Shown piece after piece: positions 21,721-48,172 of a stretch of 64,000 nucleotides of DNA. How positions within the stretch are numbered: the first letter of the stretch is position 1; each line of letters begins with the position of its first letter. The notes under the pieces are model-generated. The model was not told the DNA's origin, ran no database searches, and saw only the letters and a program-made list of their open reading frames with translations. Origin of the DNA: an uncultured SAR86 cluster bacterium (lineage in GTDB: Bacteria > Pseudomonadota > Gammaproteobacteria > Magnimaribacterales > AG-339-G14). The translations under genes and the position numbers were made by a program. The stretch covers positions 7,231-71,230 of the forward strand of contig CACESE010000006.1 of NCBI GenBank assembly GCA_902562135.1. The letters run 5' to 3'.

Positions 21721-22382
21721 AGAAAAAATTAGCTAATTTAGAAAAAGATTTGGATTATACTTTCAAAGATAAGAATTTATTAATTAAAGCACTTACTCAC
21801 ACAAGCAGTTCCCAAGAAAATAACGAAGTCCTAGAGTTCTTAGGAGATTCAGTTTTGAATCTAATCGTCACAGAATTGTTACTTGAAAAATTTCCTAACG
21901 AGAATGAAGGGTTTCTTAGCTTGATGCGTTCGAAATTAGTTAGCAGAAAGATACTTAATAAGATAGCTAATGGTTTTAAATTGGAGGAATTTCTAATTTT
22001 AGGAGAGTCATTTAAAAACCAAAAAATTCCAGAAGATTTATTGGGAAATGCTCTGGAAGCAATTCTTGGGTCAATTTTTTTAGAAAAAGGATTGCAGCCT
22101 CTGAGAAAAATTTTTAAAAAAAATTTTAATAAAGAAATTTCATTACTTTCGAAATCTGACTTGAAAAATAGTAAGACTATTTTGCAAGAATATTGTCAAA
22201 AAAATAAGTTTAACTTACCAACATATAATCAAATAAAGAAAGATGAAAAATTAAATTCTTTTATTGTGATTTGTCGCTTAAATAAAGACCTACAAAGTCT
22301 AGGTCATGGAAAAAATTTAAAATGTGCTGAACAAGATGCAGCTGAAAAGTTAATTAAAGAAATAAAAATCATAAATGGATAA
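21717..22382 (+). CDS. rnc: Ribonuclease III
   Basis: NEVLEFLGDSVL, EAILGSIFLE, C-terminal dsRBD. Confidence 0.93.
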   Translation: MKKKLANLEKDLDYTFKDKNLLIKALTHTSSSQENNEVLEFLGDSVLNLIVTELLLEKFPNENEGFLSLMRSKLVSRKILNKIANGFKLEEFLILGESFKNQKIPEDLLGNALEAILGSIFLEKGLQPLRKIFKKNFNKEISLLSKSDLKNSKTILQEYCQKNKFNLPTYNQIKKDEKLNSFIVICRLNKDLQSLGHGKNLKCAEQDAAEKLIKEIKIING

Positions 22383-23259
22383 AAAATTTGGGTTCGTTTC
22401 TTTGACCGGAAGAACTAACGTAGGAAAGTCGACTCTTCTAAATGCTTTTTTCCAAAAAAAAATTGCGATAACTTCAAGGAAACCACAAACGACCAGAAAT
22501 AGAATTTTAGGTATTTTCTCAAGAGGAAGTAATCAAATTGTTTTTCTTGACTCTCCAGGCGTTCATACTGGATATAAAAGAGCTCTAAATAAATATATGA
22601 ATAAAACAGCCAAAGCGTGTTACGAGGAAGTCGATTTAGTAGTTTTTGTCGTAGACAGAGATAAGTGGCAAATTGAAGAGGATAATATTTTAAAAAATCT
22701 TAAAGAACTAAAGAAACCTGTATTATTAGTAATTAATAAAATTGACAGAATAAAAAATAATAACAACATTTTGCCAATTATAAATGAGCTTAGCTCTAAG
22801 CACTCTTTTGAAGCAATTATGCCCGTCTCAGCTTTAAAAAAAATGGAAGTCGATTCATTGCTTTCAAAAATAATTGAAACTATTCCATCTGGAGAATTCC
22901 ATTACCCAATTGAAAATGAAAAAGAGTTTTCTAAATCTTTTTATATATCAGAAATAATTAGAGAAAAAGCAATCAACAGGTTAGGTGACGAATTACCTTA
23001 CAGAATTAATGTAGAAGTGGAAAAGATTGACGAAGAAAAATCTATTCAACATATTCACTCAAACATTTACGTTGAGTCTTCAAGTCAAAAGGCTATTTTG
23101 TTAGGAAAGAATGGAACAATGATTAAATCAATTGGAATATCTTCAAGAAAAGAGCTGGAAAGAGAACTTGAATCAAAGGTAAATTTGCAGTTGAGAATAA
23201 GAGTTAAAAAAAATTGGACTAACGACGTCAATCTTTTGTCTAAATATGGGTACGAATAA
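22375..23259 (+). CDS. era: GTPase Era
   Basis: GRTNVGKST, KPQTTR, NKID, KH domain (ELPY...VKKNW). Confidence 0.95.
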   Translation: MDKKFGFVSLTGRTNVGKSTLLNAFFQKKIAITSRKPQTTRNRILGIFSRGSNQIVFLDSPGVHTGYKRALNKYMNKTAKACYEEVDLVVFVVDRDKWQIEEDNILKNLKELKKPVLLVINKIDRIKNNNNILPIINELSSKHSFEAIMPVSALKKMEVDSLLSKIIETIPSGEFHYPIENEKEFSKSFYISEIIREKAINRLGDELPYRINVEVEKIDEEKSIQHIHSNIYVESSSQKAILLGKNGTMIKSIGISSRKELERELESKVNLQLRIRVKKNWTNDVNLLSKYGYE

Positions 23260-23262
23260 ATA

Positions 23263-23291
23263 TTGTAATTTTTGGCAGTTTGTACTAGAAT
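23263..23291 (+). promoter_or_regulatory. Sigma70-type promoter for the riboswitch-peptide unit
   Basis: TTGTAA-N17-TAGAAT; predicted start near 23298, exactly at GTAATCGTTC. Confidence 0.65.
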
Positions 23292-23297
23292 TGCACA

Positions 23298-23435
23298 GTA
23301 ATCGTTCATCTTTTGCACTATTTAAATGCATGAGACGGAAGTAGGAAGATAGGAAAACCTCTTTCTTCCAATGGGAGGAAAGGTTAGCAAGTACCGAATG
23401 CGGGAACGAGACCGAATATCTAACGAAGGAACGCG
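23298..23435 (+). ncRNA. Glutamine riboswitch-like RNA (glnA motif) with expanded P3
   Basis: GUAAUCGUUC...P2 (UCUUUUGCA/UGCAUGAGA)...CGGAAGUA...GAAGGAACGCG. P1 is CGUUC (23303-23307) paired with GAACG (23429-23433); loop-E AGUA/GAA is present. Same core order as the cyanobacterial glnA aptamer. Confidence 0.8.
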
Positions 23436-23497
23436 TTGAGAAGGGTGTACGTCGGGAGACGTATGTACGAAATCGATACGAAAACTGGAGGCACGAT

Positions 23498-23662
23498 ATG
23501 GCTACTTACTATAGAGGCGTTAAAGTAAACTCTGATAACTCTAATTCTGAAGGAAGCACTTCAAAGGGTGGAATTTACAGAGGCATTAAACACGACGCAT
23601 TACAAAACAATAAGTCAGCTAAAAATCCTGGGATTTATCGCGGGACTAAAACAGCTGCATGA
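23498..23662 (+). CDS. 54-aa YRG-repeat peptide (DUF4278 / Downstream-peptide-like)
   Basis: GGAGG RBS at 23487-23491. MATYYRGVKVNSDNSNSEGSTSKGGIYRGIKHDALQNNKSAKNPGIYRGTKTAA. Below the ORF-track length cutoff. Confidence 0.85.
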   Translation: MATYYRGVKVNSDNSNSEGSTSKGGIYRGIKHDALQNNKSAKNPGIYRGTKTAA

Positions 23663-23683
23663 CTTTGTTTTAAGTTAAAAATT

Positions 23684-23713
23684 AGGGAGGCTTAACAGCC
23701 TCCCTTTTTTTTT
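23684..23713 (+). terminator. Intrinsic terminator after the YRG peptide
   Basis: AGGGAGGC-TTAACA-GCCTCCCT followed by a T run. Confidence 0.9.
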
Positions 23714-23733: not shown

Positions 23734-24459
23734 TTGAAACATTCAAGGTTCTCATCTAAGGCTATACTTTTACATTCAGCTAATTTTAAAGAAACTAGTT
23801 TAATTGGAACTTTTTTTACAGATACATACGGTCTAATTAAATTAGTCGTAAAGGGAGCAAAAGCAAAAAAAAGTAGATTTTCAAACATAAAAGTTCCTGG
23901 AGCTGTTTTTGAAATAGAATTTGGCGGAAGAGGAGAATTAAAAAATCTTTATACATCTGAAATTATCGACTCTGTAGTTATAGATGAATCTAATTTAAAA
24001 ATTCATCTTTACTTGCATGAAATAATAATTAGAACCTTAGAATTGGAAGCGCCAGTAAAACCAATTTTTGAAAGTCTATTAACTATACTCAAAGAAATAG
24101 AAAAGATAAGTGATGCATCTCAAAAGGAGATTAAATTGAGACAATTTGAATTTCAATTGATTTCAGAGTTGGGTTACGAGTTTAGTCTATTAAATGATTG
24201 CAATGGAAAAATGATTAAAAAAGATTCTTTTTACGAATTTATTCCAAATCAAGGCTTAAGAGAAACCAAAGAAACTAGTGAAATTAGTCGTTTGAACGTT
24301 TCTAAGGGAAGTTCAATCTTAAAATTTAGTGAGGGAGCTTTTGAAAATGATCAGTCAAAAAAATTTATTAAATATATAATGAGATCTTCGTTGGATACAA
24401 TATCGACAAAACCTTTAAATTCTTCAAGATTTTTTAGATTAAAAAAAGATGCAAATTAA
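23734..24459 (+). CDS. recO: DNA repair protein RecO
   Basis: AILLHSANFKETSLI, LRQFEFQLISELGY, KPLNSS; follows era. Confidence 0.85.
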   Translation: MKHSRFSSKAILLHSANFKETSLIGTFFTDTYGLIKLVVKGAKAKKSRFSNIKVPGAVFEIEFGGRGELKNLYTSEIIDSVVIDESNLKIHLYLHEIIIRTLELEAPVKPIFESLLTILKEIEKISDASQKEIKLRQFEFQLISELGYEFSLLNDCNGKMIKKDSFYEFIPNQGLRETKETSEISRLNVSKGSSILKFSEGAFENDQSKKFIKYIMRSSLDTISTKPLNSSRFFRLKKDAN

Positions 24460-36121: not shown

Positions 36122-36472
36122 ATGAAACTTATGTCAATTGTTGTGAAACCATCAAAAGTCGAAGCTGTTAAAAGTGCTATTTCATCTGTAGGTGTAAGCG
36201 GCGCCACTATCTTAGATGCAAGAGGTTTCGGTTCAACAAAGGGGCACACAGACTCTTATAGGGGAGCTCAATATCAAGTGGATACAAATCCCAAAGCTAT
36301 GTTGCAGGTCGCATGTAAGGACGAGAGTGTTAATGACATTATAGAAGCGGTTCGTAGTGTAGCTAATACCAACACTATTGGGGATGGAAAAATTTTCATC
36401 ACAGAACTTTTAGATGTAATACGCATTAGAACTGGTGAAACCGGTGAAGGTGCAATTAACGGAGAATATTAA
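36122..36472 (+). CDS. glnK: PII nitrogen regulatory protein (divergent)
   Basis: GFG..KG...YRGAQY T-loop, IGDGKIF, RIRTGE; directly upstream of amtB. Confidence 0.9.
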   Translation: MKLMSIVVKPSKVEAVKSAISSVGVSGATILDARGFGSTKGHTDSYRGAQYQVDTNPKAMLQVACKDESVNDIIEAVRSVANTNTIGDGKIFITELLDVIRIRTGETGEGAINGEY

Positions 36473-46003: not shown

Positions 46004-48172
46004 ATGACTGAATATGTAGATAAAGGTAATTTAAAAGTTTCTAAAAACTTAGACAATCTGATAAGCGAAAAAGTTTGTCATTCTATTGACCTCACACCAG
46101 AAGCTTTTTGGGGCAAATTTGAAGAAATTCTTAATAAGTTTTCACCCGTTAACAAAGAGCTTTTAGAAAAAAGAGAATCCCTTCAGAAACAAATTGATAG
46201 CTGGCATATAACTAATAAAGACAAGAATTTTGATAAAGAGGCCTACAAAGACTTTCTTAAAGAGATTGGATATCTATTAGACGAGGGAGATGATTTTTCT
46301 ATTGAAACAGAAAATGTAGATCCAGAGATATCTACAATCGCCGGACCTCAACTTGTAGTTCCAGTAATGAATGCAAGGTTTGCTTTGAATGCTGCAAATG
46401 CCAGATGGGGAAGTTTATATGATGCATTATATGGAACCGATGTTATTTCTGAAGCAGGTGGTGCAGAGCGGGGAAGTGCTTACAATTCGACTAGAGGGAA
46501 TAAAGTAATTGAATTTTCAAAAAAGTTTCTTGATGAGACTTTTCCTTTGACGTCTGGAAGCTTTGCTGACATTACGGCATTCCAAGTTAAAGACGGAAAG
46601 TTGCAAATAACTCTTGCAGATCAAAGTCAAGTTTCTATTGACGATGATTCAAAATTTGTCGGCTTCGTAGGAACAGAAGATAACCCAACTGGTATTTTAT
46701 TAAAAAATAATAATCTTCATATGGAAATTCAAATCGATCGAACTGATAACATTGGATCAGAAGATCCAGCTGGTATCAAAGATGTTTTGGTAGAGAGTGC
46801 AATAACAACAATTCAAGATTGCGAGGATTCGGTAGCAGCTGTTGATGGGGAAGATAAAGCTCAAGTTTATGAAAATTGGTTGGGTTTGATGAAAGGCGAT
46901 TTAGCAGAAACTTTTCAAAAAAATGATCAAACTATGACGCGAGTTCTCAATCAGGATAGAGATTATTTAAAACCCGAAGGAGATTCCTTTTCTTTACCTG
47001 GTAGAAGTACATTATTGGTTAGAAATGTTGGACACTTAATGACTAATCCAGCTATTTTAGATCAAGACGGAAATGAAGTTTTTGAAGGAATTATGGATGC
47101 GATGTTCACCATTGCTATTGCAAAACACGATCTTTTGAATACAGGAACAACAATAAATAGTAAAACCAAAAGTATTTATATTGTGAAACCTAAAATGCAC
47201 GGTCCTGAGGAGGTTAAATTTACTTGTGATTTATTTGCTGCTGTCGAATCTGCTTTGGGCTTAGAGCCTCTGACTGTAAAAATTGGAATAATGGATGAGG
47301 AAAGAAGAACTACTGTGAATTTAAAAGAATGTATCAGAATAGCTAAGGATAGAGTTATTTTTATTAATACTGGCTTTTTAGACAGAACTGGTGATGAAAT
47401 TCATACAAGTATTGAAGCTGGTCCGATGATAAAGAAATCTGAGATGAAGCAACAAACTTGGATAAATGCTTACGAGAATTGGAATGTTGATACTGGCTTG
47501 GAAACAGGTTTCAAAGGTAAAGCTCAAATTGGAAAGGGGATGTGGGCAATGCCTGATGAAATGCTGGCAATGTATGAAGGTAAAACTAACCATCCCGAAG
47601 CAGGCGCTAATTGCGCATGGGTTCCGTCGCCAACAGCAGCAACACTGCATGCGTTGCACTATCATCAAATAAGTGTCTCAAAAGTCCAAGAAAATCTTTT
47701 GACACAACAAAAAGCAGATCTCGACGATATTCTTGAAATTCCTTTGCTAAAAAATCCCGACTCATTAACGTCTGATGAGATTCAAAGTGAATTAGATAAT
47801 AACGCTCAAGGTATTCTAGGATATGTTGTTCGTTGGATTGATCAAGGCGTTGGTTGTTCAAAAGTACCTGACATAAACAATATAGGCCTTATGGAAGATA
47901 GAGCTACGTGCAGAATCTCTAGCCAACACATAGCTAACTGGTTATTACATGGCTTATGCGATGAATCTCAAGTTATAGAAACCATGAAAAAAATGGCTGT
48001 TGTTGTAGACCAACAAAATTCTGGAGATCCTAAGTACATACCCATGGCTCCAAATTTTGACGGTGAAGCTTTCAAGGCTGCTTGCGCTTTAGTTCTAGAA
48101 GGAAGAAATCAGCCAAGCGGTTATACAGAACCAATTTTACATTCCAAGCGTTTAGATTTTAAAGCTCAGTGA
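46004..48172 (+). CDS. glcB: Malate synthase G
   Basis: [45 protein letters not shown]. Confidence 0.97.

Follow-up and report, generated by a model that had tools for sequence, protein, structure and literature searches.

A predicted glutamine riboswitch with a structured third stem precedes a YRG-repeat microprotein gene in SAR86-like marine bacteria and T4-like phages

Comparative analysis of a 64,000-nucleotide (nt) stretch of DNA from an uncultured SAR86 cluster bacterium (assembly GCA_902562135.1, contig CACESE010000006.1, positions 7,231 to 71,230; here called the window) supports the conclusion that a cassette lying between era and recO is a separately transcribed mRNA of ~400 nt (23298 to ~23713), in which a type 1 glutamine riboswitch leader controls translation of a 54-residue microprotein of the DUF4278 type with three YRG repeats. 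We put the probability of this reading at about 0.78. The original prediction, made from the letters of the window, had proposed a glutamine riboswitch and a microprotein at this place, and that core is very probably right: a match to the Rfam model RF01739, covariation, and an RNA-library contig all indicate that a non-cyanobacterial marine gammaproteobacterium carries the pair as a unit of its own. What is new is a conserved and strongly covarying domain in the third stem (P3) of the aptamer, which the prediction had missed, together with its partnership with the peptide, its sharing between phages and bacteria, and the mismatch with the cyanobacterial IF17 model. The prediction had likewise overlooked a helix between the nucleotide following P1 and the stretch ahead of the ribosome-binding site, the copies on phage contigs, and the apparent absence of type I glutamine synthetase from the genus. 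Positions are those of the window, and all features described between and including era and recO are on the + strand.

RF01739 aligned end to end with positions 23301 to 23437 (model positions 1 to 53 of 53) at 37.0 bits, against a gathering score of 35, with an E value of 2.2e-4 over the whole 64-kb window and 1.9e-6 locally. The aptamer core strings that had been noticed upstream of the open reading frame (ORF), AUCGUUCAUC, GACGGAAGUAG and CGAAGGAACGC, are all intact, and the conserved core of the class is kept in full: P1, P2, the loop-E strands, and the cytosine after P1. P1 (CGUUC/GAACG, 23303-23307 paired with 23429-23433), which is invariant in 47 distinct sequences, encloses the 5' P2 hairpin and the loop-E strands ACGGAAGUA and CGAAG (23303-23343 and 23425-23433); the loop-E strands proper are 23335-23343 and 23425-23428. 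P2 (23309-23335) takes an extended form of eight pairs with a 9-nt loop and showed compensatory change at seven of the eight. The cytosine after P1, C23434, which would enter the long-range G-C linchpin pair formed on ligand binding, was invariant in 25/25 platforms. GAACG occurs at both 23405-23409 and 23429-23433, so that either copy could pair with the 5' strand of P1 at 23303-23307; energy folds prefer the inner one.

The short terminal third stem-loop of the class is absent from this aptamer, and a structured insert of 79 to 81 nt stands in the third stem where the RF01739 model has ~8 nt. The score is low because of these 79 inserted nucleotides, and only for that reason; since this region of the model is variable, the enlarged third stem leaves RF01739 membership intact and defines a variant. 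A genome search with stricter first-look filters gave only a partial alignment of 23.4 bits at the locus. A check with the Rfam models of both glutamine riboswitch classes had been suggested, and its outcome was split: RF01739 passed, and RF01704 (Downstream-peptide) was not among the 29 Rfam matches obtained at E values up to 10 between 23200 and 23760. The locus is no lone oddity, as RF01739 matched 64/101 related genomes at E values up to 0.01. In the window's own genome (G000), a second RF01739-like match (contig C11, 8746-8823, L002; 15.6 bits, E = 0.67) is probably due to chance.

An alignment of relatives and an unbiased metagenome scan, in which the two core strings had to lie 60 to 90 nt apart, revealed a three-way junction (23344-23424, 81 nt) in place of the third stem. 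Its base stem pairs 23347-23351 with 23417-23421 and showed compensatory change at 6/7 pairs; hairpin A (23360-23383) did so at 9/10 pairs and hairpin B (23394-23403) at 3/3. The strands that join these helices, AAAACC, AGCA and CGAGACCGAA, are nearly invariant. Hairpin B is flanked by a second loop-E-like motif, AGUA/GAA (23390-23393 and 23404-23406), and in some lineages a U on the 5' strand and an A on the 3' strand beside this motif co-occur, which, judged by eye, fits an added pair.

Covariation, which had been suggested as a check on the RNA, was found in two sets of sequences. We built our own covariance model, R1, from 22 sequences. In the R1 alignment of 47 distinct sequences, 93.2% of cells were paired, compared with 37 to 50% when the partners were slid, and compensatory change was seen in 27/35 pairs; none of 500 shuffles reached the observed values. 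One proposed pair, the first of a GG/CC step, failed in 18 sequences and should be dropped. Alignments fitted to R1 lean towards it, and the fold is backed by the slid controls and by an independent phage set. In the latter, comprising 29 distinct sequences, 92.2% of cells were paired and 17 pairs showed compensatory change; four of five measures were reached by 0/500 shuffles and the remaining one, for further pair types, by 32/500. Enlarged third stems with unrelated inserts also occur, at L111:925-1050, L125:2153-2263 (also L162), L169:48-166, and L056:320-475 (also L154). Three of these four types (L111, L125/L162, and L056/L154) precede YRG-type ORFs, and the ORF at L056, 94 residues long and cut by the contig end, resembles the longer cyanobacterial type.

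The extended aptamer and the peptide are tightly linked. R1 found one copy per genome in 45 of the 151 genomes searched in the window's order: 33/40 in the window's family (f1), including all 6 congeners sampled, 10/40 in family f2, 1/40 in f3, and 0/30 in f4. A profile of the peptide found it in 48/151 genomes, and comparison of coordinates placed it ~60 to 70 nt downstream of the RNA on the same strand in every one of the 45 genomes with R1. Likewise, a YRG ORF was present at 26/26 loci on metagenome and genome contigs that extend far enough downstream, and within 130 nt of 47 of the 48 R1 matches examined (from 51, leaving out L050, a duplicate of L039, and the cut loci L090 and L116). Thus the extended form precedes a YRG peptide wherever the downstream sequence sufficed, bar one locus. 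Three genomes had the peptide without an R1 copy (G072, G123, and G156); in G072, two tandem canonical aptamers stand just before it, and in G010 the peptide lies behind a short third stem. An exact-pattern scan of genome contigs returned four stretches; it omits near relatives and so says little on distribution.

Most likely the P3 domain would pre-organize the aptamer and set its own glutamine threshold. Alternatively, it might be a second sensor or a protein-binding platform that recognizes another metabolite, the YRG peptide itself in a feedback loop, or a nitrogen-signaling protein, giving the RNA two inputs or an altered ligand. The joining strands remain almost invariant across bacteria and phages while the helices vary, as is typical of a pocket or contact surface; the domain occurs only before YRG peptides and at none of the other genes under riboswitch control in these genomes; the second loop-E-like motif resembles the aptamer core; and the peptide is rich in lysine and arginine. 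However, a tertiary module whose task is purely architectural would be equally expected to have invariant junction strands, nothing of the glutamine-binding core is lost, and in G010 and G072 the RNA that controls this peptide lacks the domain. Moreover, an Rfam search assigned the insert on its own to no family, the sole overlapping match being to sucA (14.6 bits, E = 6.3). We consider this alternative improbable.

The ORF downstream of the RNA (23498-23662) encodes 54 residues. The peptide aligned with Pfam PF14105 over residues 1 to 50 (profile positions 1 to 55 of 57) at 24.0 bits, against a cut-off of 25.3, with E = 5.2e-5, and the same profile matched 42 of 44 distinct peptides of relatives at E values up to 0.01 (best, 3.1e-9). 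Its nearest Atlas clusters are DUF4278. The YRG motif is a hallmark of that family, and the peptide has three: Y5, R6, G7, R48, and G49 are invariant, and Y27, R28, G29, and Y47 are present in at least 90% of 44 sequences. The DUF4278 match takes up the whole peptide, which has no further domain and no IF7-like C-terminal region, and NCBIfam holds no family for it. An AlphaFold2 model (mean pLDDT 75.5, pTM 0.28) was assigned by DSSP pairs of β-strands around the second and third YRG and only short bridges at the first. A Foldseek search of the PDB with this model gave 0 matches, and among PDB sequences no profile hit had an E value under 0.4.

A different reading of the same unit gives the short ORF a secondary part and makes the transcript chiefly a small RNA that acts in trans or has a dual function. 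The unit is short, self-terminated, and present in many RNA libraries, and there is a precedent in cyanobacterial Yfr6 RNA, first taken as noncoding (PMC2864571; here and below, statements from the literature reflect excerpts of the papers cited). Yet the ORF is conserved at the protein level in bacteria and phages: indels in the peptide alignment are whole codons, and third codon positions carry 9 to 11 of the 14 to 16 nucleotide differences within the genus. It also belongs to a protein family and follows an invariant, strong GGAGG at a proper distance, and no complementarity to a target came to light, although no search aimed at it was made. We therefore think a mainly RNA-level role very unlikely and retain the reading of a riboswitch-controlled microprotein mRNA.

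The 474-nt gap between era and recO holds a complete unit (23263-23713), and each of the elements predicted there was recovered in its place. A promoter-like site, with a -35 element TTGTAA (23263-23268) and a -10 element TAGAAT (23286-23291) separated by 17 nt, matches the consensus at 9/12 positions. A promoter scan of the region found 3 sites compared with 2.3 expected in shuffles, that is, not above chance by itself; an alignment of 18 relatives shows the -10 element, and its distance from the aptamer, preserved across genera. The Shine-Dalgarno sequence (SD) GGAGG (23487-23491), preceded by an invariant A-rich AAAACU, is near-invariant in 25 long platforms and lies 6 nt from the ATG at 23498. 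A strong intrinsic terminator (23684-23713), with a 9-pair stem (23684-23705), a 4-nt loop, and a T-run, was one of 2 found by a terminator scan for which 0.3 were expected.

Outside the unit lie era upstream (22375-23259; a 294-residue ORF with Pfam domains MMR_HSR1 and KH_2) and recO downstream (23734-24459; Pfam RecO_N and RecO_C). Other genera have the two genes ~10 to 35 nt apart (5/5 examined), so the 474-nt gap of the window represents an insertion. The order era, RNA, peptide, recO holds in the window's genome (0.99 Mb, 76% complete) and in all seven congeners compared, and the RNA-peptide pair is conserved at other sites in three further genera of the same family. The cassette is thus an insertion in the window's genus and old in the family.

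Parts of the stretch are present in 20 of 24 listed public runs, 18 of which, from 17 studies, are RNA runs. Contigs of four marine metatranscriptomes, each from a different study, span the unit from 23298 or 23337 through 23663-23691. A transcript starting near 23298 had been predicted, and in run X2 a 385-nt RNA-library contig begins exactly there, 7 nt after the -10 element. It is preceded by 19 nongenomic letters, which we take to be a template-switch adaptor. We regard 23298 as the probable 5' end; contigs cannot prove transcription or ends, and this end rests on one contig from one run. Position 23337 was rejected as an RNA end and taken as an assembly break, for it coincides with the start of a block shared with relatives. 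The era side (22800-23297) had no RNA-contig cover in 4/4 runs and the recO side none in 3/4, with one piece of 2.3-fold depth at 23780-23928 in X4; neither was counted as evidence.

How glutamine might govern translation is suggested by the expression platform between aptamer and SD, of which relatives have two kinds. In short platforms, a pyrimidine-rich tail beginning with the cytosine after P1 is, by eye, complementary to the SD, a layout that has also been proposed for gifB of Synechocystis (PMC6212724). The window has the long kind (23434-23480), in which C23434-G-U (23434-23436) can pair with A-C-G (23478-23480) to form a helix, P0, whose 3' strand directly precedes the invariant AAAACUGGAGG. 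P0 showed compensatory change at 3/4 pairs, with CGU/ACG replaced by CUA/UAG in three sequences; variants seen by eye are CGUA/UACG in L088 and CAUAGG/CCUAUG in L108 and L145. It encloses hairpin C (23446-23465), which covaries at 6/8 pairs. The original prediction had described this hairpin as UACGUC-GGGA-GACGUA (23448-23463) with a GNRA loop; the stem is present and covaries, but the loop is not conserved. An alternative tail helix, UUGA/UCGA, is 94% paired, has one pair with compensatory change, and overlaps P0; less supported than P0, it may form in its place. We rejected an OFF helix between the 3' strand of the third stem and the start-codon region: mean duplex energies were -2.53 kcal/mol for cognate and -2.33 kcal/mol for noncognate combinations (permutation over 29 sequence pairs, p = 0.18).

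In the absence of glutamine, C23434 and two or three bases after it would pair with ACG 23478-23480, and P0 would tether the ribosome-binding region to the folded aptamer. Once glutamine is bound, C23434 would be captured into the long-range pair of the aptamer, as in the solved cyanobacterial aptamer, P0 would melt, and translation would start. Since glutamine binding would melt P0, the peptide would be made when nitrogen is plentiful. Both the binding of glutamine by this RNA and the ON direction of the switch are presumed here, the latter by analogy with gifB of Synechocystis PCC 6803, for which the bases after P1 were proposed to pair at the ribosome-binding site (RBS) and glutamine is thought to free it (PMC6212724).

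The window RNA and gifB share the aptamer core, a DUF4278 gene downstream, and a proposed pairing of post-P1 bases near the RBS that glutamine would undo. They differ in the third stem, which in the window is the 81-nt three-way junction with a second loop-E-like motif; in the platform, P0 and a hairpin upstream of the SD as opposed to direct pairing with the SD; in the product, 54 residues of DUF4278 only as opposed to IF17, whose IF7-like C-terminal region is needed for binding glutamine synthetase (PMC6212724); and in the host, a gammaproteobacterium in which no type I glutamine synthetase was found. The RF01704 RNA (Glutamine-II/Downstream-peptide) of marine picocyanobacteria resembles the window in its short YRG/DUF4278 product and its marine, nitrogen-related setting but has a different RNA fold. 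That a type 1 aptamer with this kind of peptide would be an unusual pairing, as the original prediction held, does not stand: the glnA aptamer is reported before a DUF4278 ORF in 25/28 cyanobacterial genomes (Klähn 2018, PMC6212724). Canonical and tandem glnA RNAs of marine metagenomes, which were reported to precede glnA, gltB, and transporter genes (Weinberg et al. 2010, PMC2864571; Klähn 2018), share family and organisms with the window RNA; they have a short third stem, with a total length of ~50 to 60 nt, and stand before genes other than those of YRG peptides, with the tandem in G072 as the one exception seen.

The genomic surroundings of the cassette point to nitrogen metabolism. It adjoins glnK-amtB in two other genera, convergently in g4 and directly downstream on the same strand in g3, and lies ~2 kb from these genes in g2. 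In the window itself, one of the genome's two PII (GlnB/GlnK) genes is at 36122-36439, 12.8 kb downstream of the cassette. RF01739 exceeded its cut-off in 44 of the 101 related genomes, often in tandem, and the canonical copies of the order precede type I glutamine synthetase, a GlnII-type enzyme of 323 to 336 residues, the large subunit of glutamate synthase, a circularly permuted ATP-grasp protein, and Gcw_chp outer membrane proteins. Example loci are L006:15-1418, L014:1591-3057, L004:382-1350, L019:1583-3028, and L003:838-1431; canonical riboswitches in other families of the order score 60 to 71 bits (L003-L032). The pattern suggests a regulon of glutamine riboswitches in a heterotroph, from which the "marine metagenome" glnA RNAs probably derive.

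A search for Gln-synt_C in G000 (76% complete), G005 (97%), and G008 (96%) found only a GlnII-type enzyme of 326 residues and no type I enzyme; G010 has both types. In the window's genome, the GlnII-type gene is followed by that of an NtrB-like kinase. The loci that represent this GlnII-only state of the window's genus and genus g2 are G000 contig C1 (L174:1483-2460 and 235-1344), G005, and G008. GlnE was found in 0/5 genomes searched, and PII is present twice in four family f1 genomes searched and absent from G052. In family f4, riboswitches stand on synthetase genes and the peptide occurs in 0/30 genomes, whereas family f1 has the peptide and no riboswitch on synthetase. This contrast fits a peptide that relays the glutamine signal posttranslationally; it does not identify the target. 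A complex predicted for two copies of the GlnII-type enzyme and the peptide scored 0.00, which speaks neither for nor against binding. We infer that the peptide is an effector of nitrogen status.

Several observations weigh against the interpretation of the cassette as a glutamine riboswitch that controls a microprotein. The RF01739 score exceeds the cut-off by just 2 bits. In the RNAalifold structure and in the single-sequence minimum-energy fold, the preferred partner of the 5' strand of P1 is the other GAACG copy, that within the insert; the single-sequence fold was no more stable than shuffles (z = -0.85), and all positions of the alternative are invariant, so that there is no covariation signal either way. 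The P3 domain is not indispensable, since G010 and G072 keep the peptide without it. P0 has only three pairs in the window's genome, where U23437 faces U23477, and its covariation rests on few lineages. Furthermore, secondary-structure modeling with the aptamer enforced, with P0 enforced, or with P0 forbidden left the accessibility of the SD and AUG unchanged and so gives no account of how P0 would block initiation. Finally, the analogy with IF17 is weak, as the peptide corresponds to the DUF4278 part only, and a simple IF17-like role is doubtful because type I glutamine synthetase and GlnE were not found in the genus.

The same cassette is carried by phages. A two-string scan of viral contigs returned 119 stretches; among the 80 listed, 44 held the extended aptamer, and a YRG ORF followed in 43 of these 44, the other being cut by the contig end. 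Neighbors of the phage copies are T4-like (portal, scaffold, major capsid protein gp23, gp32, and a gp46-like nuclease), and tblastn detected T4-like genes in the same stretch at 17/44 viral loci and 8/22 nonchromosomal metagenome loci. Phage copies L149, L083, and L152 share the long platform of the window. One of these loci, L053 (NZWA01000048.1), is on a contig filed under a Flavobacteriales metagenome-assembled genome (MAG). There, the extended riboswitch and a YRG ORF share the contig with a gene for a T4-like major capsid protein, and the contig probably belongs to a phage and was placed in a bacterial bin. Searches of the GenBank phage collection gave no match by blastn, either with the window unit or with a phage copy; by tblastn, two peptides gave none at E = 1e-3 and only chance-level matches at E values up to 10.

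Buchholz et al. (2022, PMC9004378) reported glutamine riboswitches from Melnitz-like and SAR11 T4-like myophages. The major capsid protein beside copy L225 is most similar to that of Melnitz (67.5% identity) and to those of Pelagibacter phages (63 to 65%). The Melnitz copy is a short canonical aptamer (RF01739 match of 52.8 bits) with an ORF that lacks YRG. In this Methylophilales phage (MZ577097.1, ~46398-46570; L311:1500-1672), the aptamer stands before an SD-like GGGGAGAG and an unannotated 32-codon ORF of the same strand; in the record, this place is given to a minus-strand ORF, and a tmRNA feature overlaps the aptamer.

The occurrence of the same cassette on T4-like phage contigs, and its new site between era and recO in the window's genus, could be taken to mean that an insertion of phage origin left it behind and that it is neutral, serving no function in the host. 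Against this, an intact single copy is found in 33/40 genomes of the family and in all congeners sampled, the helices covary, the RNA is present in RNA libraries, and no phage genes flank the cassette in the window. We give this explanation next to no credence. A more far-reaching proposal, which we regard as tentative and on balance doubtful, is that the riboswitch with extended P3 and the triple-YRG microprotein form a mobile nitrogen-status module passing between uncultured T4-like marine myophages and SAR86-like bacteria. If so, the P3 domain would be an undescribed elaboration of the aptamer that provides this one gene with a glutamine threshold of its own or with a further input; the target of the microprotein would not be type I glutamine synthetase but, for instance, GlnII, PII, or AmtB; and DUF4278 "IF17-like" proteins would be general effectors of nitrogen sufficiency, with which phages reprogram nitrogen assimilation in their hosts.

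A full-text search of the literature, with supplements and the Rfam seed alignment outside its scope, found no description of the inserted P3 domain, no link between such a domain and triple-YRG peptides in gammaproteobacteria, and no phage cassette. RF01739 is mentioned in passing in SAR86 MAGs in a 2025 paper (PMC12379486). According to an earlier study, both glutamine aptamers occur only in cyanobacteria and in marine metagenomes whose affiliation was not known (PMC6212724), and our findings suggest an answer to a point left open there, the taxon to which the marine-metagenome riboswitches belong.

With the preferred reading of a glutamine riboswitch leader and its microprotein, streamlined marine gammaproteobacteria would run a regulon that takes in glnA, glnII, gltB, an ATP-grasp enzyme, an outer membrane protein, and the microprotein. 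The peptide is kept where type I glutamine synthetase and GlnE were not found, which argues against DUF4278 proteins being simply inactivators of the type I enzyme. An extra domain that can be removed or swapped offers a way to ask how peripheral RNA domains tune a low-affinity amino acid sensor. The cassette, long platform included, beside T4-like capsid genes suggests a metabolite-gated auxiliary gene, and the phage copies may help link uncultured phages to SAR86-like hosts.

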